From Escherichia virus TH35, in the sequence record MT446408.1: 64,000 bases of DNA. One strand, given 5' to 3'. Within the stretch, counting starts at the first letter, position 1. The number at the start of each line of letters is the position of its first letter. Shown here one piece after another: positions 12,905 through 61,421 of this stretch. Below the pieces are notes generated by a model, which searched no databases, had not been told where the DNA came from, and saw only the letters and a list, made by a program, of their open reading frames with translations. A program made the position numbers and the translations under genes.

Positions 12905-13549
12905 TTACATGACTGCTAGTGCATCCTTGTAACGCTTTCTTCGCAACTCACCGTGGTTCGCTGCGTTCGGCGCGGCCCCATTAATCCGCTTAACGGTTGA
13001 ATCAAAATTCCCTGCATCCGCAAGAGGAATACAACCACTATTCTTAAAGAACCATGCCGCGCTGTCGGCAATGTATTTTGGTTCAGTCAGAATATCAGGA
13101 TTGTTCAATGCATCATAGCCTGATTGACGCGTATATTCAGCATAGTTCGCTTTGCCAGTCAGCTGAATGGCACCACGGCCACGGTACTTCCAACCGTCGC
13201 CAGATGCTACCGAACCGTTGCCCATGCGGTTTGCGTATGTATTATTGGCGATTTCCATAGGTTTACGTGCAATCGACAGGGCCAATGAGTTCGGGGCGCT
13301 TCCAGCACGACCGTTGACGCTGTAACGACTAGGCCATGTATTGGCAAGGCCCTGTGCAGAGTAGTTGAGATTTTCCACAAAGGTCTTCAAGCCGCCCGTC
13401 TCTACTCCTACGTTTGCAAGGAATGCTGCAATGGCATTCTTGCTTTTTATTCCGTAGTGCTCACAAGCCTGCTTGAAAGGATCCACCCAATTTTCTGCAA
13501 CATCCGTGCTGCATCCTGTCCCTTTAGATATTACGTTTGCATTAATCAT
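12905..13549 (-). CDS. Endolysin, glycoside hydrolase family 19 type
   Basis: ORF track 214 aa; AAFLANVGVETGGL and GDGWKYRGRGAIQLTGKANY motifs. Confidence 0.8.
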   Translation of the reverse strand: MINANVISKGTGCSTDVAENWVDPFKQACEHYGIKSKNAIAAFLANVGVETGGLKTFVENLNYSAQGLANTWPSRYSVNGRAGSAPNSLALSIARKPMEIANNTYANRMGNGSVASGDGWKYRGRGAIQLTGKANYAEYTRQSGYDALNNPDILTEPKYIADSAAWFFKNSGCIPLADAGNFDSTVKRINGAAPNAANHGELRRKRYKDALAVM

Positions 13550-33041: not shown

Positions 33042-34460
33042 TTATTCCCCTTTCAACCAAGCTTCAAACGCTTCGTCAGTTGCTGCAGAATCCGCAGCGG
33101 CCTTTTGTTTTGCGACTACACGCTGTTTTTGACCGTGTTCAACGCCGCGCAGATAATTATCCACCACGTCAAACTCAGCACCATCAACGCACTTCAAGCC
33201 TAACTTTTTAGCGCCATATTTCGCTACGGACTTGGAGTCCATAGTTGCATGATCAAAGGCACCAACAACTTTAGACAGGCGCTGGTAGAGGCTATTCTTA
33301 CGAGCAGAATCAGCGTAGAAAGCAGCAACTGCTGAATCAGATGCCATTGAGTGTTCCCCTTTTGCTGGACCTGGCGACGCTTTCGCCGCTTTTGTCGGTT
33401 TGTCATCTTTTTCGACCGAAGCCCCCTTTACGTTGCTGTTTTGCAGGCCGCTAACCACATCTTCAGCTTTGTCGCAAGGTGATACATCTTCAGCCTTGAC
33501 TTCAACTTCTTCGTCTTTGACTTCGGCTTCAACTTCTTCTTCATCACCTACCGCGCCACCTTTCAGTTTTGCAATAAGTGCTTCGATTTGGCTGATCAGT
33601 TGCGGAAGCTCGCCGCCAGCGTGAGATTCAGTTTCAACTTCAAACTTCTCTTCACCTTCTGGAGTCTCTTCAGCTTCTGCTTTGACTTCTGGATCAACCA
33701 TCACTTCTTCACGTTCTTCGGTTGAATCCTTCTCTTCTGCTTTCACTTCAACTTCGTCCTGATGAGCAGCTTCGGTGCTCTCTTCATTCAGAAATTGTTC
33801 GAGCGCAGGGATCAGTGATTTCAGCTGTTCAACAGCATTATCACGCGCTTTACCTTTTAACGGTTTTGGCATGTCTAAATCCTCGTTGGATGGTGTTACA
33901 GTCGTCAAACAAAGATGGTCAAAGCAACGACCATCCAGCACCCGTGCACCTGGTACTCGACCAACGTCCACGAGAGCAATGTGGTTGCCGCGAAGAGTTG
34001 TCTGTACCACTTCATACGGCTGCCCGTCAAACTCTCCAGACTGTATGATGAATTCACAGTCATAGCCCAAAGACAAGTCAACCTTTCCAGAATCGATGGC
34101 CTTCTTCAGACGACGGCTAAAAACTTTAAGGTCGCCGCGCATCCATGGCTTGTCATAATAAACATTGCCAGTTAGAACGCCATCAACGCCATACTCTTCG
34201 GGTGCTGTGTTATCCTCATCACCTTCGAATCCAGAAAGCATTTCGTGATTGTCGATGAAAGGGATATTTTTGAATGAATCTATCGCTTCGGGGTCTTTCA
34301 CCGCTGACTCTGGGCGATAAACTTTTACGATGCGATTCGGATCACCATCAAGTCCAACCTGACCTGCAGAATAATCAAAAATGCCAAATGACGAAATGGG
34401 ACAACCCACAATCGTCAAGAATCCATTTTTGTCAATTTCGCGTGCCGTTTGCATTCGCAT
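33042..34460 (-). CDS. Prohead scaffolding / protease-like protein with acidic coiled-coil central region
   Basis: ORF track 472 aa; long E/K/A/V-rich low-complexity segment; position upstream of capsid gene. Confidence 0.55.
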   Translation of the reverse strand: MRMQTAREIDKNGFLTIVGCPISSFGIFDYSAGQVGLDGDPNRIVKVYRPESAVKDPEAIDSFKNIPFIDNHEMLSGFEGDEDNTAPEEYGVDGVLTGNVYYDKPWMRGDLKVFSRRLKKAIDSGKVDLSLGYDCEFIIQSGEFDGQPYEVVQTTLRGNHIALVDVGRVPGARVLDGRCFDHLCLTTVTPSNEDLDMPKPLKGKARDNAVEQLKSLIPALEQFLNEESTEAAHQDEVEVKAEEKDSTEEREEVMVDPEVKAEAEETPEGEEKFEVETESHAGGELPQLISQIEALIAKLKGGAVGDEEEVEAEVKDEEVEVKAEDVSPCDKAEDVVSGLQNSNVKGASVEKDDKPTKAAKASPGPAKGEHSMASDSAVAAFYADSARKNSLYQRLSKVVGAFDHATMDSKSVAKYGAKKLGLKCVDGAEFDVVDNYLRGVEHGQKQRVVAKQKAAADSAATDEAFEAWLKGE

Positions 34461-34564
34461 CCACCCTCAAATAAGTATTGTGTATTATATCTAATGAAAA
34501 AAACTTAGGCAAACAATAATTATGGTTTGAATATGTATAACAACCGATATAGCCGCGCCTTAAT

Positions 34565-34835
34565 TAGTGTGATACGGATGATACGGATAAAATGAGGCGT
34601 ATTTTTATCCGTATCGGTGTATAAGCCGCGCTATCACTGGTGTGCTACGGATGATACGGATGATACGGATACTTTTCATATATAAGAGTTTATAAAAAAA
34701 AATAAAATTAAATTAGATATATAATTTTAAATTAATTTATTTGAATTCCTATAAAGTATCGCGGCAACGCGTATCATCCGTATCATCCGTAAGATTCTTT
34801 TGAAAACAACTACTTACTTGATACGGATGATACGT
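34565..34835. repeat. Iteron-like array of GATACGGAT 9-mers (both orientations) flanking a ~70-bp AT-rich core
   Basis: About 9 copies read directly; 21-mer ATCCGTATCATCCGTAAGATT is shared with 50974-50994. Confidence 0.6.
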
Positions 34836-34878
34836 CATTATACGCGTAAAATCCTGCGGCAATCCATTGCCAGGCGAT

Positions 34879-35016
34879 TCAGTGAATATTAAAAAGCACT
34901 CCAGCAACTAAAACGCCAATCAGCATCGAGTCGTAAACAGCCCATTTCCAAGAAAGCAAAGAGTTGCAATTAATATTTCGCACTTTAACGTAACGTGACT
35001 GAATAATCTTTTGCAT
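34879..35016 (-). CDS. Small membrane peptide (45 aa), not in ORF track
   Basis: ATG 35016 with strong RBS AGAGGAAG; hand translation MQKIIQSRYVKVRNINCNSLLSWKWAVYDSMLIGVLVAGVLFNIH. Confidence 0.35.
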   Translation of the reverse strand: MQKIIQSRYVKVRNINCNSLLSWKWAVYDSMLIGVLVAGVLFNIH

Positions 35017-35026
35017 AACTTCCTCT

Positions 35027-35947
35027 TTAGTTCAACTTAATTGCGGTGATCTGTCCGTAAACGGTAGATGTCAATGCGTCTGTGCATTGATAGTTTAGAT
35101 ACACGTTGCCAGGCGCGGCAAGAGTAATTATCTTTGTTGGAATATTGCCGCCGAAACGACCTGCAGCCCGAATGCCAGCAGACATCGTGAATGCATCATC
35201 CGTAATATCTGAATTACTTGTTGACAATTTTACTGTAATTCCGGTATTCGCTTGAACTCCTTCTGTTGCTACAGTCAACTGACTTGCTGTCACAAGCCAT
35301 TTCCCTGCAGGCAGGTTTAATGTTGCCAGATTCACCAGAGTTGTCGGAGGATTGCTTACACTATTGCTTGTGTTTTGCACATTGCTTGCAGCAGCATTAA
35401 GAACTCCAGAACCATCAATTGATAGTGTCGTTCCTACTTTTACGCCACCCAAGGTTGATGCTGATGCAATCGGTAACGAGTATTGAGTAACACTAATTGT
35501 ACCGTCACCTGCAACACTTATGCCACTTCCTATCTTGACGCCGCCGAGAATAGAAGCCGTTGCCGCTGGTAACGTGTATTGGTTGCCGCTGGATTTGACT
35601 ACCTTAACGGCGACAGCATTCTTGGAACCTCCAGACTCCATGCCTATAATCACTGCTTCTCCAAAAGCGATGGTGATTGTAGATGCAGTTAAACCAGTCT
35701 GCACGTCTGTTATGTTCATTTTGGGAACTGAAAGTGTCAGATTCGGCTTGCTGGTAGAATCGCCATCATTACCGATCATAAAGAATTGACCAACTGAATT
35801 GTATCCAGACGCCAATGGCGGACTCAATGGAACAATCAGGTTTTTATCGGATGTAAATTCTGAAACAATCGCCAAACCGTTAGCATATACAGCAGGCAAT
35901 ACTGGCGTTTGTCCAGATAGAGGAAACGTGCTGATTGGTATCGTCAT
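35027..35947 (-). CDS. Fiber-like structural protein with internal tandem repeats
   Basis: ORF track 35027-36016; start moved to ATG 35947 (RBS GAGGT); repeats YTLPAATASILGGVKIGSGISVAGDGTISV and YSLPIASASTLGGVKVGTTLSIDGSGVLN. Confidence 0.6.
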   Translation of the reverse strand: MTIPISTFPLSGQTPVLPAVYANGLAIVSEFTSDKNLIVPLSPPLASGYNSVGQFFMIGNDGDSTSKPNLTLSVPKMNITDVQTGLTASTITIAFGEAVIIGMESGGSKNAVAVKVVKSSGNQYTLPAATASILGGVKIGSGISVAGDGTISVTQYSLPIASASTLGGVKVGTTLSIDGSGVLNAAASNVQNTSNSVSNPPTTLVNLATLNLPAGKWLVTASQLTVATEGVQANTGITVKLSTSNSDITDDAFTMSAGIRAAGRFGGNIPTKIITLAAPGNVYLNYQCTDALTSTVYGQITAIKLN

Positions 35948-35954
35948 AATGACC

Positions 35955-36806
35955 TCAAATGATTGGTATTTTTCTGCACTTGCAGTGTATTGCCCATCCA
36001 GGAGGACCGATGTCACCCTTTTTGAACTTCAATTCGCCGCCAACTTCCCATAGGCGCTTGTCATCAAGTTTGAATCTCATTCCGTCGACGTGTTCATGAG
36101 AGATTCGCGGCTCCTTTCCTGCTCCTGAGTGCGCCCACTCAAATTCTTCGACTCCATTCTGGCGCATCCTTTCATCGCTTAGAACGCAATACAATTTGCT
36201 TGTCTGGTCTTTAGCGATCAAGTCGACTCTCTTTGCAGAGAAGTGTTTTACGTTTCGCAATGCCGCCTGAATGCCTGACGTGCCTTGCTGGGCTGGGTCG
36301 GGAGAAGTCAGCGAAAGCATGACTGCTTCGTACACTCTGTTGTGAATATCCTCGCCGACCTTAGTCACTAGAGTCGTGTTAAACTTCTCGCTTGTTCTAA
36401 GAGTGTTCTCAACGAATTTGTTATATGTGGCCTTTGGCGCTTCTATGCCTGCGGACTTAAGGCTTGCGAATGTAGCAGAAGTGGCACCCTTTTCGACCGA
36501 TTTGATAAAATCAGCGGCAATCTTCGACCCAACACGTGCAAACGCCTTTGCCCATTTCAGTTGCAGCCGTTTCATAAGGGTCTGGAATGTCGAATCAGCA
36601 GAGTCCTGCGCAAAAAACTTCTGCACCTGCTTCTTGTCAAGCCATTCTGAAATGCCTGCCTGATAGTCATCAATCATCGCATAGCAAAGACCTTTCATCT
36701 CACGACGGTAGGCCATCGCAATAGCGTTTGATGGGATTATCGGACTGCCGCGCCCGATTCTATCGGGTGAGCGGCGTTCACGTTTTTTCGAAGCTTTAAA
36801 AGCCAT
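35955..36806 (-). CDS. Head morphogenesis protein (MuF-like minor capsid protein)
   Basis: ORF track 35955-36869; start moved to ATG 36806 just after portal stop; position between portal and capsid genes. Confidence 0.65.
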   Translation of the reverse strand: MAFKASKKRERRSPDRIGRGSPIIPSNAIAMAYRREMKGLCYAMIDDYQAGISEWLDKKQVQKFFAQDSADSTFQTLMKRLQLKWAKAFARVGSKIAADFIKSVEKGATSATFASLKSAGIEAPKATYNKFVENTLRTSEKFNTTLVTKVGEDIHNRVYEAVMLSLTSPDPAQQGTSGIQAALRNVKHFSAKRVDLIAKDQTSKLYCVLSDERMRQNGVEEFEWAHSGAGKEPRISHEHVDGMRFKLDDKRLWEVGGELKFKKGDIGPPGWAIHCKCRKIPII

Positions 36807-36807
36807 A

Positions 36808-39183
36808 TCAACCTTGCTTCGGTGAATTAGTAGGATTATTGAGTGCTCCGTATGCTTGAGAGCAATCACCCTTCAACCACTCCTTGAATGAGTTCACATC
36901 TAATTCGTGGATTGAGTCGAATCCGTTCCAACCGTTACCAAATGATGCTTGATAAGCTTCTTTCGCTTCTTCTGCTGAATCGAATCCAAGCATACACTTG
37001 TGTTCATCAAACTCGCCAGAGTAGTTATCGTTTTGGTTCACGATAAAGACTTTCGGCGACTTCAGATTTGGACCCACAAAGCAGTCGACTTCATCACCGT
37101 CTGCGCCCTTGGTGCCCTTGATGAATCCGTAGTGGTGCGGCATCTTCACGGCCCATTCACCGTCAAGGCTGTTTCCTCTACGAATGCTGTTTCGCGGATT
37201 CTCAATGCCAAGAATCATTCCGTGCAACTTCATCTTAGGTAATGATGCTGCGTCCATTTTACCCACGTTGTGGCGTAAGTTGACGACGTGTCCTTTAACG
37301 CTTGGAAGGGTAGACGGTTGCACCGACCGTGAATCTTTTTGAGGGTCAAAATCCACATCCTGACCTTCTTTCAGGTAGTAATCCGCAATACCCTCCAGCC
37401 CTTCTTTCAACTGCGTTAGGACATCAACCTTATGGCTTGATTCATCATCGGTATCGTCCATGTTGATTTCGACAGGCGCTTTGTCAGGGTTTTCCGCCAA
37501 CTCACCACGCGCGGCACCCTCTGGCATAATACCTGTTTCGCTATAGAACTGGCCGCCCATCTTAACGACATCAGCTTTCGCCTGTTCAATATCGGCCTTA
37601 CCTTGCAGGACTTCACCAGCAGACTTGCCAAGCAATGCCATATTCTCTGGAGACATCCCTGGGGTTTCTTCTGCCGCGTCTTCCGGCAGACGGTTGTAGC
37701 CGCTGTTTTTGTCGTCTTTGATGCGGTCGCGCTCTTCATCAGGAGAAATGACGCCAGCATCAATAAGAGTTTTGCCAGTGTTGGCTCGCTTATCATTGAT
37801 TTCTGCAAGTTGAGTAGCAGTAAGTGAGCCAACTGGTTCCCATGCAACCTTAACATCGACATCCACCCCTTCTGATTTGAGAAGGATTTTGTAATGGCGG
37901 TCGAGAATTTTTGTCAGGTCATGCTGCTGGCACGTTTCCAACTCTTCGTGATAGCTGACCATCTCGAATTCACCAGTGGCGTTAAAGCCTTTTGGCGAAG
38001 TCCCAAGCAGTTTGGTCGACGGAACTTTTGCGATTGCGGCCACAAGCTGGTACTGGTTCATGATGATGCTGTCGAAGTCTGACAAGTTGATGTCAAACTG
38101 GTCCATCTCTTCTTTTTGGCCAAGCACTTTGACTGCATAGTTGTCGCGGTACTTGATCCACATCATCAGACGTTCTGCAAAAGACCGCTCATTGGCAATA
38201 GCCTTGTCAACGTCGGTCCGCAGCGTCGTTGTACGCTTGGACATCGCCAGCAATGGCGCTTCGTTGGCGGTACGTTCAGCGGCATAGATGCGTTCATAAA
38301 TCTGCTGAGTCAGAGGAATGCCGCCGTAAATATAAGTCGGCTTGAGAATATCAGCTGGCTCATCGTTGCGCAAGATTATGAGGTGGCTGCGATGATAACG
38401 TTGTCCGCTGATTACCCAATATTCTGGGTCATAGAAGTGCTGTGATGCAGGGTCTGCTGTGTTTTCAGACGTCAGAAACGGCATCATCCAATAAGGGTCA
38501 ACCTGAATGATTCCCTTATAAGACCCCTTTGTCACACCATCAATGTTAAAAGGCTTGCTGTAATATTCTGGGTCATCGCTACGCACATCAAATATGATGA
38601 CGCGGATACCAAAAATATTTTTGAATCGTTCGGCTTCAACTAAGTGCTCTTTGATATTAAATTCTTTATCAATTTGCTTTAGGCGTTCGCTTGCCTGTAC
38701 TGACAATTCTGACTCAGAACTGGATTTGACTTCCCAGCCTTTACGGACTGCATCGCGGCCTACCATGGAACACGCTTTGTTCACCAGCCAGTGCTGCGCG
38801 ATGATTGCGCAAGCTTGATAGCCGATGAATGACTGTGACAAATACCAGTTTTGAAGTTGAATAGGTACTGTGTATGGGTTGACCTGCCCTTCTGAACTGA
38901 TGTTCTTCAAGGCATTATCCATAACTTTTTTGGATACTGTTGCGGAATCGACTGAACGACCTTTTATGATAGCAACACCGTCGCCATTAATATCAGGCTC
39001 ATACAAAGGGAAGTCATCAACCGTTTTAAAGGTAGGTCGATTGCTTTCAGTCTTTTCCCAGCGTTGACCGCTGCCGCGCCTTTCAAGGCGTTCAAACGGT
39101 GCCAATGGGTCGCCTGGCGGCATCTCCGCTGGTTCGGCTTCTGGTTGCGTCTTCTCCCAGAGTTTTATGCCAAGAATTTTCAT
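36808..39183 (-). CDS. Portal protein with C-terminal inorganic-pyrophosphatase-like domain
   Basis: ORF track 36808-39216 (TTG); start moved to ATG 39183 (RBS AGGTGG); position next to large terminase; C-terminal D-G-D-E-V-D-C signature. Confidence 0.75.
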   Translation of the reverse strand: MKILGIKLWEKTQPEAEPAEMPPGDPLAPFERLERRGSGQRWEKTESNRPTFKTVDDFPLYEPDINGDGVAIIKGRSVDSATVSKKVMDNALKNISSEGQVNPYTVPIQLQNWYLSQSFIGYQACAIIAQHWLVNKACSMVGRDAVRKGWEVKSSSESELSVQASERLKQIDKEFNIKEHLVEAERFKNIFGIRVIIFDVRSDDPEYYSKPFNIDGVTKGSYKGIIQVDPYWMMPFLTSENTADPASQHFYDPEYWVISGQRYHRSHLIILRNDEPADILKPTYIYGGIPLTQQIYERIYAAERTANEAPLLAMSKRTTTLRTDVDKAIANERSFAERLMMWIKYRDNYAVKVLGQKEEMDQFDINLSDFDSIIMNQYQLVAAIAKVPSTKLLGTSPKGFNATGEFEMVSYHEELETCQQHDLTKILDRHYKILLKSEGVDVDVKVAWEPVGSLTATQLAEINDKRANTGKTLIDAGVISPDEERDRIKDDKNSGYNRLPEDAAEETPGMSPENMALLGKSAGEVLQGKADIEQAKADVVKMGGQFYSETGIMPEGAARGELAENPDKAPVEINMDDTDDESSHKVDVLTQLKEGLEGIADYYLKEGQDVDFDPQKDSRSVQPSTLPSVKGHVVNLRHNVGKMDAASLPKMKLHGMILGIENPRNSIRRGNSLDGEWAVKMPHHYGFIKGTKGADGDEVDCFVGPNLKSPKVFIVNQNDNYSGEFDEHKCMLGFDSAEEAKEAYQASFGNGWNGFDSIHELDVNSFKEWLKGDCSQAYGALNNPTNSPKQG

Positions 39184-39345
39184 TGTTAACGCCACCTGAC
39201 AGTGAAAGGGAATCAATCTATATTATAAATATTCATGTGTTTGTAAGCAAATGATATGTATGGTGATCATAAATAGTTCATAAAATATTTTGCTTTTGTA
39301 TCATTTTGAGTTATATTTTAGTTAACCAAACGAAAGGAGATTGAA

Positions 39346-40001: not shown

Positions 40002-41462
40002 TTAAAGGTTAGAGAAGAAGCCGGATGCTGCAACAATTGGTTTCATCAACGCCATGATTGCTGCGTCCGCTTTGTTAGGCGATTTGACTCCACGCTTTGC
40101 CATATCCTTTTTCGATTCAACTTTAAACTTACCAAGCACAGACGTGTCTTTGCGCGGCGCTGACATCTCAAAAAGAAATGTCTCAATTTCTTCCGCAGAC
40201 CAAGCAGGAATCCCAAGTTCTGGAATGCCGTCTGTGTCGATGGAAATCAGCTCATCAGTCGGGTATACAGCCTGCCCTGTTGCATACTCATATGTCTTCC
40301 TGAATCGTTCGGCAATCTCAGTCCATTTTTGCGCTTTTATGTTTGCGAAATGGTCTTTATTGAGTATTTCAACGTGTGGTAACTCAAGGAAGACGTCATC
40401 AGGATCATCAACAGCACCTTGCGCGTTGAACGCATTAAATTCGATTCTTGGGAATGTTGGATTTTCATGGATTGCATACTCATTAAGCTCATCAAATTTT
40501 GAACCAGCAAATGCACCAACACCGATGGCGTCATAGGTAATTGATGCGCCGAATGTTAATGCATCTTTCCAAACTCCGCTTGCGGACTTAAGCAATTCAT
40601 CTTCCAGACCTTCCCATGTCTTGATGCCGCGCAATACGTTGCCCGTGACAAATGCTGTGGCGTTTAAGTCGTCGCCGTCGTCTGCCACGTCAAAGCCTAT
40701 ACGGTTAGACCCTGACAAGCTCCATCCCAACGTAGGGTGTTTGTGGAGGTTTAGCGCGGCCTTGACGAATGCACGGTTGATGACCGACTTGTCGCCGCCT
40801 GTCTTCGGTACTCCGCCATAAACGTGTTCTGCCTTTTTCGGGTCGCGCTCATACATGCCAGCGATAACGTCCAGCATTGTTTGCGACAAGAATGGATTGT
40901 CCTGCCAGTTAATCTTCTTAACAATGGCATTTTTAGGCGGTCGCATAACAAAGTTCTGGTAGACGAAATCAGCCTCTTCATCAGGGTTAAATATGATCCA
41001 TATTTCGGACCCTTCCTTACGAATTGTCGGCTCAATAATATCCCACTGCTCTTCAGTCAGCGCGTGCGCTTCTTCAAGCCAAAGAACGTCAACACCTTCT
41101 GTTGATTTGATTTCGTCAACGTTGCGTGCGATACCGTAAAATAAGAATTCAGATTTTGTTCTTTTGTGTTCAATGGAGTTCTTTAATAAGTTGAACTCAT
41201 CTTTGAAATCAGAAATTTCTATTTTGTCTTTTAATAGCGTATATACTGATTCAGAAATCTTGTTCTGGAATTGTCGAACGCAAAGGAATTTTAATTTAAA
41301 ATTTGCCGCCAAATAAATAGCAAAACCAGCGGCATCATGCGATTTGGAAGATGCACGACCGCCGTATATAACTTTGTATCGCGCTTTCGTCTTCCAGACT
41401 TCTCTTAAAGCAGGATTCAACTGGTACATGACTTTCCAATTATGTGTTAATATTTTATTCAT
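40002..41462 (-). CDS. Terminase large subunit
   Basis: ORF track 486 aa; Walker A-like VIYGGRASSKSHDAAG; nuclease-type C-terminal half. Confidence 0.9.
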   Translation of the reverse strand: MNKILTHNWKVMYQLNPALREVWKTKARYKVIYGGRASSKSHDAAGFAIYLAANFKLKFLCVRQFQNKISESVYTLLKDKIEISDFKDEFNLLKNSIEHKRTKSEFLFYGIARNVDEIKSTEGVDVLWLEEAHALTEEQWDIIEPTIRKEGSEIWIIFNPDEEADFVYQNFVMRPPKNAIVKKINWQDNPFLSQTMLDVIAGMYERDPKKAEHVYGGVPKTGGDKSVINRAFVKAALNLHKHPTLGWSLSGSNRIGFDVADDGDDLNATAFVTGNVLRGIKTWEGLEDELLKSASGVWKDALTFGASITYDAIGVGAFAGSKFDELNEYAIHENPTFPRIEFNAFNAQGAVDDPDDVFLELPHVEILNKDHFANIKAQKWTEIAERFRKTYEYATGQAVYPTDELISIDTDGIPELGIPAWSAEEIETFLFEMSAPRKDTSVLGKFKVESKKDMAKRGVKSPNKADAAIMALMKPIVAASGFFSNL

Positions 41463-47109: not shown

Positions 47110-47745
47110 GCCGCGCAGGAGTGTACTGCAAATTTACTGTGGGCACAAAATAGTACGGTACTGTCTAGGACTTTTTCTTTGAAAAGTTAGTGGACCAAAT
47201 GTGTCGTATTTTGATTAGTGTACTGCAAATTTCATCAAGTACCAAAACGCACCAAAAGACCCATGCCCTAAAAACCACACGAACGCAATAATCAATCGCC
47301 GTTACAGTTTCCAGCGTTACAATTCGAAAGCGAATGATTCGATACACAATAATATGAAGCATAATGATTCGAAAGCGAATGATTGCGTGTAGTATAATAT
47401 CGGTGGGGATTATTCTAGATGCATGTAATTTCGCATGCGTACTATTTTCGGACGAAGGGTCGGCATATTCCTCGTTTTAGTTCGGAACGAAGGGAAAGTT
47501 TTGCGCCTTTATAAAACAACGACTTACGCAACCCGCCCTAACGGTCCGATATAGGTGTCTATATAAAACAAGGACTTACGCGATGTTCTCCATTTAACGT
47601 AATACCCGTTATGCGAACTAAGGAGCATCTCGAAGAAGATTATGAGGCGACGAAGGGAAGGATAAAGGAGTTTTCGCGGAGAAGCGCATCGAGATAGGGA
47701 CGAAGAAAAGCCGCGACTAAGCGCGGCCTATTAGTAACGGAAGGA
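47110..47745. repeat. Noncoding repeat-rich region (~640 bp) with several direct repeats
   Basis: TACTGCAAATTT x2, TTCGAAAGCGAATGATT x2, TATAAAACAA(C/G)GACTTACGC x2, ACGAAGGG x3-4 read directly; only one weak 65-aa ORF. Confidence 0.5.
47689..47712 (-). terminator. Rho-independent terminator for acidic paralog A
   Basis: On - strand GCCGCG-CTTAGT-CGCGGC hairpin followed by TTTTCTT. Confidence 0.45.
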
Positions 47746-47747
47746 TA

Positions 47748-48038
47748 TTATAAGGAGACAATTTTAAAATAAGTTACTTCGCCGCCGAGTTGCGGTACAG
47801 CGATATATTCGCCGCCGATTTCGGTAATCGTATAAACGAAGCCGTTAATCGTTACGCGATAGGATACGATGTCCTCGTCGCGATACTTGTAAAGGTCGAG
47901 GAAGTTGATCGGCTCATAAATAGACTCGATAATCGCGTCGACGTTAGAGAGATAAACGCTCTCTAAGGTTTCGCCAAATACGTTAGAGTTTTCGGAAGTT
48001 TCGACGCGAGCGGAACGGATAGCGGCTAAAGTAATCAT
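47748..48038 (-). CDS. Acidic small protein, paralog A (96 aa, net charge about -10)
   Basis: ORF track; RBS AGGAG; own promoter; similar to 48146-48448 and 48674-48958. Confidence 0.65.
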   Translation of the reverse strand: MITLAAIRSARVETSENSNVFGETLESVYLSNVDAIIESIYEPINFLDLYKYRDEDIVSYRVTINGFVYTITEIGGEYIAVPQLGGEVTYFKIVSL

Positions 48039-48105
48039 AATAATCTCCTAGTTGGTCGGGCGGGTAGCGACCTATTCGCTACCTCATCCCCTCTCGATAT
48101 AAAAC

Positions 48106-48134
48106 ATTATAGTATTAGTGTACGAAGAAGTAAA
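48106..48134 (-). promoter_or_regulatory. Sigma70-like promoter TTTACT-N17-TATAAT with upstream CGAAAAAGTGC element
   Basis: Read on - strand; near-identical to promoter at 48577-48604. Confidence 0.6.
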
Positions 48135-48145
48135 GCACTTTTTCG

Positions 48146-48448
48146 TTATTTTGCGATAAAATGTTTATAAGCTTTATCGCCTTCTACGTCGATATACTCG
48201 ACGATAATTAACGCTTCGTCGCGAGGCGTAACCGTCTCGATAAGGGTAACGGCTTCGTCGTCGGTCTTCGCGAAGCGGATGGCGCTACGTTCGGCGTATT
48301 TCATATCGTCGAAGGAAAGGCCGACGAAGGCGAACGCGCGGACCTTAATAGCGGTCCCGTCTAGTTCCGCGTTAACGGCTTTAAGAAGAGAAGCGACGGT
48401 TAAGCGGTCTTCGTCGTAAGTAAGGATAGAAGAGATTAAAGTGGTCAT
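48146..48448 (-). CDS. Acidic small protein, paralog B (100 aa)
   Basis: ORF track 48146-48505; start moved to ATG 48448 (RBS GGGAG) because the promoter -10 lies at 48505-48510. Confidence 0.6.
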   Translation of the reverse strand: MTTLISSILTYDEDRLTVASLLKAVNAELDGTAIKVRAFAFVGLSFDDMKYAERSAIRFAKTDDEAVTLIETVTPRDEALIIVEYIDVEGDKAYKHFIAK

Positions 48449-48504
48449 AATAAAACTCCCGATGCTAGTAGAAGGAAGGGCCATCGCCCGTCTCGATATA
48501 AACA

Positions 48505-48532
48505 AGTATACGCGAGTGTACGAAGAAGTAAA
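48505..48532 (-). promoter_or_regulatory. Sigma70-like promoter TTTACT-N16-TATACT
   Basis: Read on - strand upstream of paralog B. Confidence 0.5.
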
Positions 48533-48576
48533 GAAAAAAGATAAAATAATTTATCTCATTTTTATCGAAAAAGTGC

Positions 48577-48604
48577 TTTACTTTTTTCTACACTATATTA
48601 TAAT
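48577..48604 (+). promoter_or_regulatory. Sigma70-like promoter TTTACT-N16/17-TATAAT with upstream CGAAAAAGTGC element
   Basis: Read on + strand upstream of paralog C; about 60-nt leader to ATG. Confidence 0.6.
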
Positions 48605-48673
48605 GTACTCATATCGGGACGGGATGAGTTAACGAATAGGTCGTTAACGCCCGTCGAGAACTAGGAGTTTAAA

Positions 48674-48958
48674 ATGGCTATTCTTAACGTTTCTTCCATC
48701 CGTAACGCTATCGTCGAGAACTACGGCGTAAAACAAATTTTATCCGAAGTCTACGCCGCGAACGTAGACCAAACTATCGAGGCAGGTGGGGTAACGGTCG
48801 CCGAGGCTTTTAAACTTTACGCGGCGCTACCGGAATCGGACCGCGAAGCCTTCGAAGTAAACGTTAACGGATACTTCTTCGAAGCGGTCGAAATCGGTAA
48901 CACCTTACTCGTTATGGGCGAAGAAGAATTTGAGACCTTCTCCCTCGTCGAAGCGTAA
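48674..48958 (+). CDS. Acidic small protein, paralog C (94 aa, net charge about -12)
   Basis: ORF track; RBS AGGAG; own promoter and terminator. Confidence 0.65.
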   Translation: MAILNVSSIRNAIVENYGVKQILSEVYAANVDQTIEAGGVTVAEAFKLYAALPESDREAFEVNVNGYFFEAVEIGNTLLVMGEEEFETFSLVEA

Positions 48959-48972
48959 GAGAGGATTTTTAG

Positions 48973-48998
48973 AGCGTCGTGCGCGACGCTTTAATAAA
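48973..48998 (+). terminator. Terminator hairpin after paralog C
   Basis: AGCGTCGTGCGCGACGCT palindrome followed by TTTAATAAAATTCTTT. Confidence 0.5.
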
Positions 48999-49038
48999 AT
49001 TCTTTCGCGCCTAGCGCCCTAACAAATAGGAGTTTATT

Positions 49039-49665
49039 ATGGTTAGCTTAAATCGTTTCTCGACTAGCGGCGACGTTATCGCAACTAAGACCGCCGACCT
49101 CGTTGCATTTTATAATGCAAATTCCGGTTCGAAGCCGATTAAGAAATTTTCGGACCGCCGGACCGCCGAGGCTCGCGTAATAGCGTTAATCGAGTCCTTA
49201 AACGCGCTCGATGAGCCGTCCAACGAATCGCCCATCCCAGACGCGAAGTCGCGCGAGGAAGTGCCCAGCGATGTAAAAACGCATAAGGCGCGTGCGGTCG
49301 TTAAAAAGTCCGAGCCGACCCAGGAAGAACTCGACGCGATGACCGACGAAGAGTATGAAGCCTTCGTTAAGAGCGGTTTAAACGATAGTGCAAATTGCGT
49401 AGTGCAAAATGGAACTCCTTCCCATCGCCGTTCAAATAGCGAAGGTATTGCGAAAAGTTGGGATAACAAGGAAGTGGCGCAAAAGCGTCTCACGCGTAAC
49501 GGCGTTATGGTCGAGGGTGTAGGCGAGTTCAAATCGGTCCGCGTAGCGTTTGCTGCGCTGGGCTTACCGGATAGCAAGCACATTCGCTTCCGCATGAAGC
49601 TTAAAGAAGCTGGACGATTGAACTTTGAGTTCGGCAACAAGTCCTACACCTTCCAGATCATCTAA
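49039..49665 (+). CDS. Hypothetical protein (208 aa), mosaic composition
   Basis: ORF track; RBS AGGAG; 5' half CpG-rich like the acidic cassette; contains two ATAGTGCAAAT-type motifs at 49385-49410. Confidence 0.6.
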   Translation: MVSLNRFSTSGDVIATKTADLVAFYNANSGSKPIKKFSDRRTAEARVIALIESLNALDEPSNESPIPDAKSREEVPSDVKTHKARAVVKKSEPTQEELDAMTDEEYEAFVKSGLNDSANCVVQNGTPSHRRSNSEGIAKSWDNKEVAQKRLTRNGVMVEGVGEFKSVRVAFAALGLPDSKHIRFRMKLKEAGRLNFEFGNKSYTFQII

Positions 49666-49671
49666 TCGAAT

Positions 49672-49694
49672 GGCGGCCCTTCGGGGTCGCTTTT
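49672..49694 (+). terminator. Rho-independent terminator
   Basis: GCGGCCC-TTCG-GGGTCGC hairpin (one G-U pair) followed by TTTT; followed immediately by ATAGTGCAAAT. Confidence 0.5.
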
Positions 49695-49715
49695 CATAGT
49701 GCAAATTGGTGGCTT

Positions 49716-49979
49716 ATGAATACGCTTATTCTTATCGCTACGTTGTCCATCGGAAGTGGTCGCACCTTATCCCTTTATGATCATAGTGCAAATTGCGCTT
49801 ACCCAACGCGCGTTGCGGTGATAGTTAATAGTGCAAATCGAATGCTATTCGAGACTTGTTGGCGGGTCGATAACGAGAAAGGTCGGGTAGTCTTAGGTTA
49901 TAGTGCAAATCTGCTGGTGGAGTCGTTCGATTGGACGGTTGAAGGCCGTAAATTGTTACGGAAAGTGACTAAAAGATGA
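49716..49979 (+). CDS. Doubtful ORF (87 aa) carrying three ATAGTGCAAAT motif copies
   Basis: ORF track; GGTGG as possible RBS; coding status uncertain. Confidence 0.3.
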   Translation: MNTLILIATLSIGSGRTLSLYDHSANCAYPTRVAVIVNSANRMLFETCWRVDNEKGRVVLGYSANLLVESFDWTVEGRKLLRKVTKR

Positions 49980-50040
49980 CTTATAATAATACACTTTCTA
50001 ACGCGTTTATGGTTGTAACCTTCCCCGTCGTATTACCGAT

Positions 50041-50080
50041 GGCCCTAGAAGTGGAGAAAATGTGTTCTAGGGCCGTTTTA
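50041..50080 (+). terminator. Rho-independent terminator
   Basis: Perfect 10-bp stem GGCCCTAGAA/TTCTAGGGCC followed by GTTTTA, then ATAGTGCAAAT. Confidence 0.55.
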
Positions 50081-50093
50081 TAGTGCAAATTGG

Positions 50094-50582
50094 CTAGTGG
50101 CGGGAGAATTGCTCACCTTCTTTGGCCGCCTCTCCAAAATCCTTGTAGAAATCGTCCATAGAACGGCCCATTTTACTATTGCCGTTTTCATCAATCATCG
50201 TGATGCCGTAGATGATATTCAGTTCACGAATAGCATTAAGCTTGGCTGATGCCGCGACTTCTGGATCACGCACAAGCTTGACCAAATTGTGAATTGCACC
50301 TTTTACGCTCCACAAATCCTTTAGCGGCATTTCTTCCATACGCTTTTTGAAGCGCATTTTGTAGTACGGATTGCGTTGTGCGCAAAGGATTCGCTGGCCA
50401 GTGTAGTTATCCGTTGCAACTTCCATTCCAAATACTAGTGCAAAAGCTGCGCGCATGTCATGGCCCTGAATAACAAGGTCAATGAACTCATCGAATAAGG
50501 CCTGATTGTGCTCTGCAAATCGCGGGTCTTCAAAGTCTTCAGGCATCGCTACATAGTCTTGACTCATAGTGCAAAATCCCAT
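50094..50582 (-). CDS. Hypothetical protein (162 aa); motif copies overlap both gene ends
   Basis: ORF track; start codon overlaps an ATAGTGCAAAAT copy; no clear RBS; function not assigned. Confidence 0.55.
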   Translation of the reverse strand: MGFCTMSQDYVAMPEDFEDPRFAEHNQALFDEFIDLVIQGHDMRAAFALVFGMEVATDNYTGQRILCAQRNPYYKMRFKKRMEEMPLKDLWSVKGAIHNLVKLVRDPEVAASAKLNAIRELNIIYGITMIDENGNSKMGRSMDDFYKDFGEAAKEGEQFSRH

Positions 50583-50714
50583 AGTGCAAATTAATAGTGT
50601 GAATTATACAATGGATGAACATTATATTCAAGTGCAGATTGATGTTCATTATGGCTATAAACGTACACAAATCATATTGCGGAATGAATAGCGGACCGTG
50701 GTGCGTGGTGTACT

Positions 50715-51130
50715 GTTTGATACGTATAAAAGAAATCCATCCCTTTCGCCGCTTGTTATGCAAATCAATGACTTAGCCGCTGCTGGCTGGTTTAAGCGTA
50801 TCATGACGTATCATCCGTATTGCCGCAAGTCTTTGTTTTTACTTATATCTTACGGATAATACGTATAAATATAAGTTTAGTATAAGTATGAGGATATGAA
50901 AAAAATTAATTTAAATGTTTTTAAAATGGAGTTTATTTATTTTTGGAGTTTTATATATAACGATGCCCAGTTTTATCCGTATCATCCGTAAGATTAATGT
51001 ACAAGCCAGGCGCGGCAAGGGCTGTACACTGATACGGATAAAAAAACATGACGTATCATGACGTAAGGGTGTACCACTTTGGAAAAGAGGAATCCAGGAA
51101 CGGTGCGGCCTGCAGCCATGATACGCTTAA
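50715..51130. repeat. Second iteron-like array (GATACGGAT and GTATCATGACGTA repeats) flanking a ~90-bp AT-rich core
   Basis: Read directly; shares 21-mer ATCCGTATCATCCGTAAGATT with 34774-34794. Confidence 0.6.
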
Positions 51131-51397
51131 ATTTTAGCCGTATTTTAGGCGTATCAAATGTGTGCAAACAACACGTTTCACGACACTAAAATTTCAATCC
51201 ATAGATAATTCCTAACAAACACCACGGACCAATAGACACGATCTATGAAATATATTTCTAAATATTTCCGCACAATTAATAAATAAAACACAACCTCATA
51301 ATTATTCCATCGCAAAACACGACCCAAACGACAAAAGGCCGCATAAAGCGACCCATTGCACACATTCCATTCTTCAAAACACACAAATCAATGTTCT

Positions 51398-51934
51398 TTA
51401 TCCGCTGACCTTCCAGTCACCATTCCTTTTATCACGCTTCTTTAACTCCGTTTTAATGACATTATTATCCACAATAACTCCTAAACGGCGCAATTCACAC
51501 ATGACCTTGTGGCGATATTGTCGAAGCTTTTTGACGTCCATTGTGCTCCTTGAATAAGATAGTACCATAAAAATAATATCATCATTCATTTTGTAACGCA
51601 TACAAGTTTTATAATGCCTTTTGAAAATTGCATTTACGGCATCTGTTTTCAGCAATTCATCCATTAATTCTGGATTCCCTTCACAGACGTTAATGACCCA
51701 TTCATCCCTTGATTTTGCCGCTTTCAATCCCCTTAGAGTTAATAACTCATATAATGCCTTTCTGCACTTAGAGCAATCACCAATTGTCAAACTTGATTCC
51801 ATTTCTTGAGCATCGGTCAACTCTGTATTGCCTTTGTTGAATTTACCGCACAAGCTGATTTGCTCGCCGTTGTCAAAGTAGTGGGCAAGTTTTGAGTATC
51901 GCGGCTTGCCCCATCCTGCAACGTTACCCATCAC
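51398..51934 (-). CDS. Hypothetical early protein (178 aa)
   Basis: ORF track. Confidence 0.55.
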   Translation of the reverse strand: MMGNVAGWGKPRYSKLAHYFDNGEQISLCGKFNKGNTELTDAQEMESSLTIGDCSKCRKALYELLTLRGLKAAKSRDEWVINVCEGNPELMDELLKTDAVNAIFKRHYKTCMRYKMNDDIIFMVLSYSRSTMDVKKLRQYRHKVMCELRRLGVIVDNNVIKTELKKRDKRNGDWKVSG

Positions 51935-59103: not shown

Positions 59104-59751
59104 TTATCCTGTGGCCTGCATATTGCGTACATACTTCTGCTCTAATGAATAGATGAAGTCGGCGACAGTCAATCCCTTCGTGTGCCATTCATACATGGTG
59201 AAGCCTGTATTCAGGAAATAGCCGCGCACCTTGTCCATCGCTTCAGCTTCCTCCAGTGAAGCCATCAGCGCGGCGACGTTGTCATAAGAAGGTACAAATC
59301 CCTTCTTGCGTAGCGCATTGCGCAAATCTTTAGTTCTGAAGCCAATCTTGCAAGGGTCATCGCGGCCCGTGGATGATGCAACCTTTGGAAGAGCAAGGAA
59401 CTCTTTGAGGAACATTGCAATGTTCAAGTCGCCTGCATCATCAAGCTTCTGGATTCGGTTGCGACCGCGACCCTTGAATTCACTCGCACGAGGGTGAGCG
59501 CCAAAACAGTGCGCCCCTTCCAGTTTAGGGTCAATGATCATCACATCTTTCCCAATGCGCAGCTCTACGTAGTAAAGATAAGACTCATCGACAAGCTTTG
59601 TGCGCTTGCAAGTGATTGAGTCCTTATCATAACCAAAGCCGCGCAACACGGTTGAGATCATTCGGTTCATTTCTTCGCCGTGAACGTCACTTTCTTTGTT
59701 CAGTTCACCAAGATGTTGAAAGAATTTAGCGATGTTGATTGCTTTATTCAT
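59104..59751 (-). CDS. Hypothetical protein (215 aa)
   Basis: ORF track. Confidence 0.6.
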   Translation of the reverse strand: MNKAINIAKFFQHLGELNKESDVHGEEMNRMISTVLRGFGYDKDSITCKRTKLVDESYLYYVELRIGKDVMIIDPKLEGAHCFGAHPRASEFKGRGRNRIQKLDDAGDLNIAMFLKEFLALPKVASSTGRDDPCKIGFRTKDLRNALRKKGFVPSYDNVAALMASLEEAEAMDKVRGYFLNTGFTMYEWHTKGLTVADFIYSLEQKYVRNMQATG

Positions 59752-61421
59752 CAGAATTCATCCTTATCTCTTCCCAAAGAACGTTTACGCTCAATAACCT
59801 TCTTCAAGAATTCAATATCTTCAGGGTCAGACTCATCGCGGATAAGATACGCTAAGATGGTCATCAAATCAGAAATGTATTCTCCTGCTTCATTCTTAAT
59901 CAGCGGCGTAAAGTACCCGCGCTGGTTGCGATAGGTTGCAGGCTCAAAACCAAGCTTCGACATGTGCGGCGCAAGGGTACGTGAGAAAGGCGACTTGCCG
60001 CACTTAGCTCTGAAGCCCATAGCGATTGCACCACTAGTGATGTGCCAGCGTCCGCTGTGATGTCGGTCATAAGGCGCGGTAATGATGACTTCAACAAGGT
60101 CGTTGTCGACCATCTCATCACGGATAACGCCGCGAGCGCGTTCCATTTCGTTCTTACTGAACTCAGTAAGCATACGAGATGTTTCACCAACAAAGGCATT
60201 GTAACCTGCTTCACCGTGCTTCTCCATCCACGCAGCGCACTCAGCCATCAGTTGCCAAACGTCTTCTTTCAAAGTGGAAAGGTCAGCTTGGAAGTCTTTA
60301 GACCAGTTCGGTTGCCCGTCCTTGTCAGCAAGTTGTCCAACAAAGATAGGGTACACACGACGGTTGCCCGTGTCGTCACGCTGCATACCTGCGTATTCGT
60401 TGCCGTCCATGATAGCAATCCACTGGCGTGGTTTAACCTGCGTGTCTTCAAATTTGAAGTCCAGGTCATCTTCCGTCTTAGTCAGGAATGCTTTCATGTT
60501 TTCGATGTCAGCCTTTTTAAAGCCTGTCATCTCGCCAACGTTCGCGATAATTGAGCGACCCGTAATAGCTCGCAAGAACGGGTTGAAGTTCTGCGCGGCC
60601 AAGTTCAACGGAATCGGTGTTGCGTGGCGGTCGTTCATAATAGCTTCGCAAAGTAGCTTACTAAAATAACTCTTCCCTGCGTTCTGGCCGCCGATGAGCG
60701 CAATGGAGATTGGCGCTTGACAGCCAGGGTTGGTCAGGCGGTTATAGAGCGATAGCCAAAAATACACACCGATTTGTCGGTTTAACTCTGTATCGAACGG
60801 TCGGAATAGCTCGATAAGGTATTTCTCAATGCGCGCAGTACCGTCCCATTCAGGCAGCTTCTTGTAGAAGAAGTCCATCAGGTCATCGCGCTGATAACGC
60901 ATGGCCCATTCCTTATAGGATTGAGCGACCTGACGTGAGTTTGGGTTGGACAGGCCTGCTGCGTCGACAGCGGCAACTATCTCTGTGACTTCCAACGTCC
61001 GGTCGGTGAATGTTTCTCCGCGATGGTCGACTAAGCGTCCACGAAAAGTATCTTTGTGAGGGAATGGGACAATGCCGCTTCCCTTATCAAACAACGCGTC
61101 GAAAACCGCATAACGGTTCATGTCACTCGTCCGGTCCGCCTGAAGAACAAAATCATCTTTCGTCGGTTTGTAGTGAGGGAACTTGATTACCTGAAGTGAG
61201 GCGAGCAAACGTGCTCTTTCAACCAAGTCTTCTTCACCGTAGCATTCCATGCGCTCTGCATCTTTCTCAACAGCCTTATGCTGGAGGCTGATTTTAGCTC
61301 TGGCGCCTTGCTGCTCTGCCGCTTGCATTTCTTCTGAAACACCAGCGTCTTGAATTTCGTCAAAGATTGCACCAAATTCATCACCTGTATCCTCTGGAAG
61401 ATTGTCATGTTCAATTGACAT
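59751..61421 (-). CDS. P-loop NTPase of the primase-associated D5/VirE-like helicase type
   Basis: ORF track 556 aa; Walker A IALIGGQNAGKS; directly downstream of primase gene cluster. Confidence 0.55.
   Translation of the reverse strand: MSIEHDNLPEDTGDEFGAIFDEIQDAGVSEEMQAAEQQGARAKISLQHKAVEKDAERMECYGEEDLVERARLLASLQVIKFPHYKPTKDDFVLQADRTSDMNRYAVFDALFDKGSGIVPFPHKDTFRGRLVDHRGETFTDRTLEVTEIVAAVDAAGLSNPNSRQVAQSYKEWAMRYQRDDLMDFFYKKLPEWDGTARIEKYLIELFRPFDTELNRQIGVYFWLSLYNRLTNPGCQAPISIALIGGQNAGKSYFSKLLCEAIMNDRHATPIPLNLAAQNFNPFLRAITGRSIIANVGEMTGFKKADIENMKAFLTKTEDDLDFKFEDTQVKPRQWIAIMDGNEYAGMQRDDTGNRRVYPIFVGQLADKDGQPNWSKDFQADLSTLKEDVWQLMAECAAWMEKHGEAGYNAFVGETSRMLTEFSKNEMERARGVIRDEMVDNDLVEVIITAPYDRHHSGRWHITSGAIAMGFRAKCGKSPFSRTLAPHMSKLGFEPATYRNQRGYFTPLIKNEAGEYISDLMTILAYLIRDESDPEDIEFLKKVIERKRSLGRDKDEF

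Follow-up and report, generated by a model that had tools for sequence, protein, structure and literature searches.

It is an established design for packaging sites to carry short repeats around the cut and to lie beside or within the gene for the small terminase (TerS), as seen in P1 pac, SPP1 pacL-pacC-pacR and lambda cosB. P1 pac spans about 160 bp within pacA and carries seven TGATCA/G hexamers, arranged four and three around the cleavage zone, together with an IHF site, while SPP1 pacL-pacC-pacR and lambda cosB (R3-I1-R2-R1) are the classical sets of TerS-binding repeats. For T4 gp16, itself a TerS, a pair of pac-like sequences in genes 16 and 19 has led to a "synapsis" model. Paired clusters of initiator-binding repeats with AT-rich DNA, set far apart, are also known from SPP1 oriL/oriR (bound by G38P) and P4 ori/crr. 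Here we analyzed a stretch of 64,000 nucleotides (the window) from Escherichia virus TH35 (MT446408.1), a Wifcevirus and E. coli PB1-like myovirus, which contains two elements built from short repeats around an A+T-rich core. The first, termed el1 (about 34570-34846), is the element flagged by a first-pass annotation of the DNA; the second, el2, lies at about 50719-51155. el2 is the left genome terminus and packaging site, and it adjoins terS, the usual position of a pac or cos site. We interpret el1 as a paralogue of the terminase-recognition module of PB1-like myoviruses, most likely an uncut TerS docking site, and consider the chances of this reading to be about even.

el1 fills a 418-bp non-coding gap and lies, in the minus-strand sense, upstream of the protease gene (33042-34460), and so in front of the scaffold/protease-capsid operon where the first-pass annotation had placed it. 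That annotation had also described about nine copies of the repeat, in both orientations and partly in tandem, and this description holds. The exact unit GATACGGAT is found 10 times in the window compared to 0.30 expected, a number reached in none of 100 shuffles, and seven of the ten matches fall at 34571-34828, in both orientations and several in 9-bp tandem. With degenerate near-copies counted (GCTACGGAT, TTACGGAT, GATACGTCA, GATACGCG and TATACGCG), el1 contains about 12-13 units of 9-10 bp. These form inverted arrays around the core at 34570-34588 (two units), 34607-34615, 34643-34670 (three), 34768-34792 (three, inverted) and 34819-34846 (three). The features of el1 are:

34570-34588: promoter-proximal repeats TGATACGGA-TGATACGGA-T, then a degenerate unit GGCGTAT
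34607-34615: promoter-proximal inverted unit ATCCGTATC
34643-34670, plus strand: inner array B, TGCTACGGA-TGATACGGA-TGATACGGA-T, made of three tandem 9-bp units and directly adjoining the A+T-rich core
34667-34761: A+T-rich core, about 91% A+T, an imperfect palindrome with its centre near 34716 and an internal inverted repeat
34760-34771: small GC hairpin CGCGGCAACGCG ahead of array C
34768-34792, minus strand: inner array C, CGCGTATCA-TCCGTATCA-TCCGTAA, inverted relative to B and carrying the 21-mer common to el2
34819-34846, plus strand: distal array D, TGATACGGA-TGATACGTCA-TTATACGCG, with periods of 9, 10 and 9

Arrays B and C together form a perfect 22-nt inverted repeat with 102 nt between its arms. 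The ~70-bp stretch of more than 90% A+T reported earlier corresponds to 34676-34748 (91.8% A+T); the longest stretch with at least 90% A+T runs from 34669 to 34759 (91 bp), and nowhere in the window except in the core do 70-bp windows reach 90% A+T. Central el1 also has a strong cruciform or hairpin potential (single-stranded DNA fold of -32.7 kcal/mol, z = -7.45). A search of Rfam 15 gave nothing at gathering score, with sub-threshold chance matches in el1 and none in el2. One further motif, GCGGCA(A), stands beside the arrays in every lineage; it is not enriched in the window (2+2 occurrences vs 2.1 expected) and we leave it out of the module.

The second element, 16 kb away, has the same layout as el1, and the two align through arrays and core at 68% identity. 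The 21-mer ATCCGTATCATCCGTAAGATT, which had been noted as common to both, indeed has exactly two exact copies in the window, at 34776 and 50975, where none is expected. The repeat core TGATACG occurs 22 times in the window (eight in el1, eight in el2 and the rest elsewhere) and 23 times in the complete genome of the sister phage Bas99 (nine in el1, eight in el2 and six singletons); clusters of the repeat number exactly two per genome. Part of the outer half of el2 in phage WFH (46 bp) shows 95.7% identity to el1, a sign that sequence may have been exchanged between the copies. Conservation of this layout in other genera, described below, strongly supports the assignment of the elements as putative protein-binding platforms. 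The features of el2 are:

50719-50727: unit GATACGTAT, terminal-repeat side
50763-50775, plus strand: single exact match to the IHF consensus, AATCAATGACTTA, inside el2 between two arrays and invariant in four Wifceviruses
50796-50820: array GCGTATCATGACGTATCATCCGTAT, terminal-repeat side
50850-50866: inner array TTACGGATAATACGTAT, terminal-repeat side
50867-50974: A+T-rich core, holding the left physical genome end
50975-50991: inner array ATCCGTATCATCCGTAA, outside the terminal repeat
51031-51039: unit GATACGGAT, outside the terminal repeat
51048-51067: array ATGACGTATCATGACGTAAG, outside the terminal repeat
51120-51155: degenerate units, outside the terminal repeat

The half of el2 that lies inside the terminal repeat (50719-50866) is invariant in four Wifceviruses. 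In the half outside the terminal repeat the flanks are variable or unalignable among Wifceviruses, and the arrays are kept in every version.

The genome ends locate the cut within el2. The GenBank records of the sister phages WFH, WFC, Ro157lw, SP13 and Mansfield all start at one base, the complement of window T50927. The left end is hence the cut 50927|50928, AAACTCC|ATTTT in the gene direction, in the middle of the el2 core and ~7 bp off the midpoint between the el2 inner arrays. In three independent end-mapping studies, direct terminal repeats of about 3.7 kb were described for WFC and WFH (Korf 2019, PMC6563267), and PhageTerm gave 3,533 bp for Ro157lw (PMC6454146) and 3,673 bp for Mansfield (PMC6753283). 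The right ends of WFH, Ro157lw and Mansfield are identical (cut 47254|47255). Thus, from the left and right ends shared by the sister phages, the terminal repeat and its first sizeable gene are placed in the window as follows:

47255-50927: direct terminal repeat, 3,673 bp, equal to the Mansfield length
50094-50582, minus strand: terS, small terminase, the first sizeable gene inside the terminal repeat, directly downstream of el2

The terS product matches PDB 7UXE, "Small terminase", with a phmmer E value of 6.1e-34; a TerS review lists this entry as the TerS decamer of Pbunavirus E217. The Mansfield record labels the orthologue as TerS. The gene lies 345 bp from the left end, with el2 136-570 bp upstream of it, and, being inside the terminal repeat, it is present in two copies in virion DNA. 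el2 therefore combines the pac/cos features that we looked for: an end within the element, terS adjacent and repeats flanking the cut. el1 shares the architectural one, repeats flanking a core, but it is 16 kb from terS and adjoins the protease gene, and we therefore class it as a pac-site paralogue and not as a pac site.

The right end of the terminal repeat has repeats of its own that are unrelated to GATACGGAT. Two exact copies of AGTGTACTGCAAATTT, 97 bp apart, stand just outside it (47120-47135 and 47217-47232), and this outside motif is kept beside the right end of the Pantoea phage Kyle. Just inside the right end are two 43-nt repeats (47313-47355 and 47358-47400) with the core TTCGAAAGCGAATGATT. 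The heptamer AGTACAC occurs four times in the window, three of them at 47121, 47218 and 50708.

The two-copy layout is not confined to Wifceviruses. In Pantoea, Pseudomonas and Salmonella relatives one copy precedes terS and the other stands 16-20 kb from it, in the interval that separates the MuF-side genes from the protease. The repeat unit is specific to each lineage and matched within the pair, and the two copies within a genome are far more alike than positional counterparts across genera. The elements in other genera are:

Pantoea phage PA1: TAACCGTTA, 9-bp tandem, in two clusters; 14 matches vs 2.1 expected in the 12.5-kb locus
Pantoea phage Kyle: AATAACC, with all 10 copies inside the two elements
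Pbunavirus Ab27 and JG024: GGTAATTT, with an 8-bp period
Salmonella phage PCSE1: ATATCGG and TATAACGG; 16 of 18 copies in the two elements
Burkholderia phage BcepF1: an AT-richer palindrome before terS, flanked by inverted repeats; terS-side copy only

In Kyle, which has a 3,603-bp terminal repeat, the left end is in the AT core, 357 bp before terS. A pac site has been proposed for JG024 at 59,376, supported by a pac fragment that agrees with it (PMC10913387). This position falls in the el2 homologue and is the exact base at which the Ab27 record starts. In three genera the cut occupies the centre between inverted arrays. A scan of IMG/VR for GATACGGATGATACGG recovered the paired arrangement in Wifcevirus contigs only, plus single chance matches. 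Conservation of the repeat arrangement in related phages, a check proposed in the first-pass annotation, is thus borne out across genera for the two-copy layout, with a unit that differs by lineage. The matched copies across genera are the chief evidence for a function of the module. Because the unit changes by lineage while the copies stay matched, a single co-evolving trans-acting phage factor is indicated, and it is very probable that both copies bind one phage-encoded factor.

Both elements lie upstream of promoters that resemble the sigma-70 consensus:

34512..34484, minus strand: near-consensus sigma-70-type promoter TTGCCT-17-TATAAT, between el1 and the protease start codon, 10 of 12 matches
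50603-50648, minus strand: two overlapping near-consensus sigma-70 promoters before terS, TGAACA-16-TATAAT and TTGAAT-17-TATAAT (50631..50603)

The first of these is invariant in five Wifceviruses, and the nearest el1 repeat is ~58 bp upstream of its -35. Transcription starts mapped by ONT-cappable-seq in phage 14-1 include P014 (start at 13257, TTTACC-17-TATAAT, sigma-70 class), which drives the gp22 protease, P041 (start at 59807), just ahead of terS, and P040 (start at 59399), which also drives terS (bioRxiv 10.1101/2023.10.13.562163). The promoter at 34512..34484 is the orthologue of P014, and the pre-terS promoter is that of P041. The P040 spacer and -10 are inside tandem GGTAATTT repeats, with AT-rich DNA at the UP-element position. 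A promoter scan of the Wifcevirus cores for an equivalent of P040 yielded one weak candidate, in el1, and nothing in el2.

These observations are consistent with a module composed of inverted arrays of a lineage-specific 8-10-bp repeat around a core that, being A+T-rich, would be easily deformed. One sequence-specific phage protein would bind cooperatively to the tandem 9-mers that flank the core and would bend or wrap the AT-rich DNA, the prime candidate being the ring-shaped TerS. At el2 such a complex would recruit the large terminase, with the cut at AAACTCC|ATTTT. At el1 the same complex would assemble where no cut end is reported, and might act as an operator-like regulator of the head genes, or might serve the packaging site as a reservoir or as its partner in synapsis. 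In every lineage el2 has the cut and abuts terS, which makes TerS the obvious candidate; whether the shared factor is TerS is, in our estimate, an evenly balanced question. Since el1 is located 60-360 bp upstream of the strong head-operon promoter, its likeliest part appears to be that of a TerS docking site or operator that is not cut, or of a synapsis partner of el2, although regulation of the head operon by el1, taken by itself, is a tentative proposal that we consider doubtful. In 14-1, P040 overlaps the el2 repeats and is a promoter of terS, so that any protein occupying these repeats would control terS. TerS dosage is described as critical in E217, and this, together with the overlap between P040 and the repeats, would fit autoregulation, at least at el2.

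A more ambitious proposal is that TerS of PB1-like phages has two DNA platforms per genome, one cut and one, before the head operon, uncut; we regard this as unlikely. TerS at el1 would then regulate the head genes or would synapse with el2, licensing the cut and duplication of the terminal repeat, and capsid production would be coupled directly to packaging. In a sharper variant, el1 may be nicked or cut at low frequency, or may be a start of DNA synthesis that duplicates the terminal repeat.

Several points weigh against el1 as a paralogue of the terminase-recognition module that docks TerS. The mapped genome ends are those of sister phages and not of the window's own phage. None of the 28 Wifcevirus records starts at el1, and no genome end, nick or packaging start is reported there, so that a part for el1 in packaging would be suggested by paralogy alone. 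The repeat period of 9 bp (8 bp in Pbunavirus) is not one helical turn, and a simple wrap model is not obviously satisfied. Purified E217 TerS is reported to have shown no appreciable DNA binding in vitro. The high identity of el1 within the genus (97% invariant in five Wifceviruses; 98.3% identity to Bas99 over 350 bp), considered as proof of selection, had to be rejected: the protease, scaffold and capsid genes are 97-99.5% identical to those of Bas99 at third codon positions, and because these positions in adjacent genes are equally conserved, the identity reflects recent shared ancestry. Finally, an AT core flanked by binding arrays equally resembles the DNA-unwinding element of an origin, and two distant origin-like copies have precedents in SPP1 oriL/oriR and P4 ori/crr.

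The last point leads to the alternative that survives best, an iteron-type origin, in which an initiator would bind the arrays and melt the core, and el1 and el2 would be two origins or an origin and its cis-acting enhancer. The first-pass annotation had recognized this architecture, and part of that comparison stands: arrays in both orientations enclose the most AT-rich DNA of the window, the core at 34667-34761 (about 91% A+T) has the composition of an unwinding element, the cruciform or hairpin potential of central el1 is strong (z = -7.45), and SPP1 and P4 are known to have two matched distant copies. Formation of long terminal repeats in the T7 model needs DNA synthesis primed at the repeat boundary. 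Priming of this kind would make el2 origin-like, and the end at el2 would then be a melted or nicked origin at which duplication or cutting of the terminal repeat starts. No origin has so far been mapped in PB1-like phages. Other parts of the comparison do not stand. The units are 9-10 bp, head-to-tail, and not helically phased iterons of 17-22 bp; neither element has a DnaA box (TTWTNCACA); and no initiator-like gene is found beside el1 or el2, where the neighbors are the head-fibre-like gene, a 45-aa membrane protein, the protease and terS. None of these element neighbors (head genes, terS) matches a Rep family. The replication genes are 20-30 kb from the elements, the cumulative GC-skew minima of Pbunavirus are in the replication-gene region and not at the elements, and GC skew in the window tracks gene orientation. 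Because el2 holds the left end and adjoins terS, a packaging or terminase module is favored over an iteron origin, which we judge to be rather unlikely.

A second alternative is that the module controls transcription, the repeats being operators for a phage regulator and the core an UP-element or bend that times terS and the head operon, with the genome end incidental. Both copies are indeed upstream of near-consensus sigma-70 promoters into terS and protease-scaffold-capsid, the orthologous starts P014 and P041 are mapped in 14-1, P040 has its spacer and -10 inside repeats with AT-rich DNA at the UP-element position, and near-consensus promoters of late genes need temporal restraint. In addition, a weaker promoter-like site in el1 (ATGAAA-17-TATCAT, 34679..34651) overlaps array B. 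However, ~12 sites spread over 280 bp, 60-360 bp upstream, are far more elaborate than known operators or activator sites, and the ONT-cappable-seq data of 14-1 show no start inside the el1 repeats. No regulator-like protein was seen among the neighboring genes examined, and the centring of the cut between arrays in three genera is a coincidence hard to accept. We consider purely transcriptional control to be quite unlikely. The activator-dependent late promoter suggested for el1 in the first-pass annotation is weakened as well: a weak core, a poor -35 and an abutting site would be the signature of such a promoter, but the head-operon promoter is near-consensus sigma-70 and lies downstream of the repeats, and the orthologous 14-1 start is mapped.

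The weakest alternative, which we regard as improbable, invokes binding by a host factor, be it a nucleoid-associated protein or a transcription factor, or else a recombination and mosaic-boundary element that has no binder of its own: the unit does vary with host genus (E. coli, Pantoea, Pseudomonas, Salmonella), el2 has one IHF-consensus match and both elements lie at within-genus mosaic boundaries, but the Pantoea phages Kyle and PA1 differ in unit, sharing only the core ATAACC, which makes host-factor binding unlikely, IHF-consensus matches in the window (five) are at chance level with none in el1, and a layout so elaborate and so conserved speaks for a specific function. To our knowledge, no E. 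coli factor recognizes GATACGGAT.

With TerS docking at el1 and el2 as the preferred interpretation, two other proteins encoded near el2 were considered as binders:

49039-49665, plus strand: 208-aa protein (phrog_4730), inside the terminal repeat, in the opposite direction to terS
51398-51934, minus strand: 178-aa protein (phrog_2358), just upstream of el2, with a possible zinc-binding pattern H/C...C...CxxC

The 208-aa protein is an alternative candidate for repeat binding. Orthologues occupy the equivalent place in Kyle, PA1, Pbunavirus Ab27 and Salmonella PCSE1 and carry a strongly conserved C-terminal motif LGLPDSKHIRFRMKLKE; a single-sequence AlphaFold model was uninformative (pLDDT 39). 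For the 208-aa, 178-aa and other nearby candidate binders there was no informative match in Pfam, PHROG, NCBIfam or PDB, and a homologue search with the candidate binder returned near-identical Wifcevirus proteins only.

The 4 kb around el1 share 99% identity with Escherichia phage FEC19 and 92-99% with 27 more Wifcevirus records. Every gene near el1 is on the minus strand. The genes that bear on the position of the elements are, in the order of the head genes and followed by that for the large terminase:

36808-39216, minus strand: portal gene, followed in gene order by a MuF-like gene
35027-36016, minus strand: head-fibre-like gene, between the MuF-like gene and the 45-aa open reading frame
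34879-35016, minus strand: 45-aa open reading frame for a small hydrophobic membrane protein, adjoining the el1 gap upstream and hypothetical in the Bas99 annotation
33042-34460, minus strand: head maturation protease, start codon at 34460, followed by a scaffold-like and then the major capsid gene
40002-41462, minus strand: terL, alone on this strand with plus-strand genes on both sides

Judged by eye, the syntenic DNA of Pantoea phage PA1 seems to specify a protein similar to the 45-aa product, with the motif W-x-W-A-V-Y-D in common. Compared with Bas99, the head-fibre-like and MuF genes form a mosaic cassette: they are 87-89% identical (66-72% at third positions), and the DNA on either side is 99-100% identical. 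The cassette lies at window 34750-36700 and one of its boundaries coincides with the distal edge of el1, at about 34800-34850; relative to WFC the divergent block is 34850-35600. el2 is likewise a within-genus mosaic boundary.

PB1-like phages, the group that includes Wifceviruses, rank among the phages in most frequent therapeutic use against Pseudomonas aeruginosa. Their packaging signal is undefined, and reports on the genome ends of Pbunavirus conflict. The present analysis offers a candidate TerS target for each lineage, such as the GATACGGAT arrays in Wifcevirus and the GGTAATTT arrays in Pbunavirus, that can be tested by gel shift. It also raises the question of why a packaging signal would be duplicated ahead of the head genes. 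Knowledge of the site bears on the rebooting and engineering of genomes, on the prediction of transduction, and on the still-open question of how long terminal repeats are made.

How the elements relate to the described systems can now be specified. The two-origin systems of SPP1 and P4 are alike in having two homologous, distant repeat and AT-rich elements per genome with presumably one binder. There, however, one copy is in or next to the initiator gene. The Wifcevirus elements have no initiator near them, one of the two forms the genome end beside terS, and their unit has half the length usual for iterons. T4 offers two related TerS targets kilobases apart, with proposed bridging by TerS rings, but the T4 sites are single, 24 bp long and intragenic and its ends are not sequence-specific, in contrast to the elaborate intergenic arrays described here.

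Among the classical packaging sites, P1 pac has short repeats on both sides of the cut region, next to or inside the gene for the recognition subunit, a design that el2 fits. The Wifcevirus units differ in being 9-10 bp long and not Dam sites, and in surrounding an extremely AT-rich core. Moreover, P1 has permuted headful ends, whereas the ends here are exact, with a 3.7-kb direct terminal repeat (Pbunavirus excepted), TerS binding is putative, and a second, apparently uncut copy lies 16 kb away. SPP1 pac and lambda cosB likewise have TerS boxes in both orientations beside the cut, DNA bending and an adjacent terS; they differ in having one site per genome instead of two paralogous sites. In the window, furthermore, terS is ~9 kb from terL, and the repeat unit is shorter and in tandem. 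We know of no classical pac or cos system with two co-evolving copies of the signal, and our literature search, in which the primary E217 terminase paper was not included, found no publication that describes the arrays or the second copy. E217 TerS and the putative JG024 pac site also belong among the systems for comparison. The available passages on these two phages describe neither the arrays nor a second copy. In E217, terS and terL are likewise separated, by about 58 kb and the other way round the genome. The terS of the window is homologous to E217 TerS, and the pac position of JG024 lies in the homologue of el2.

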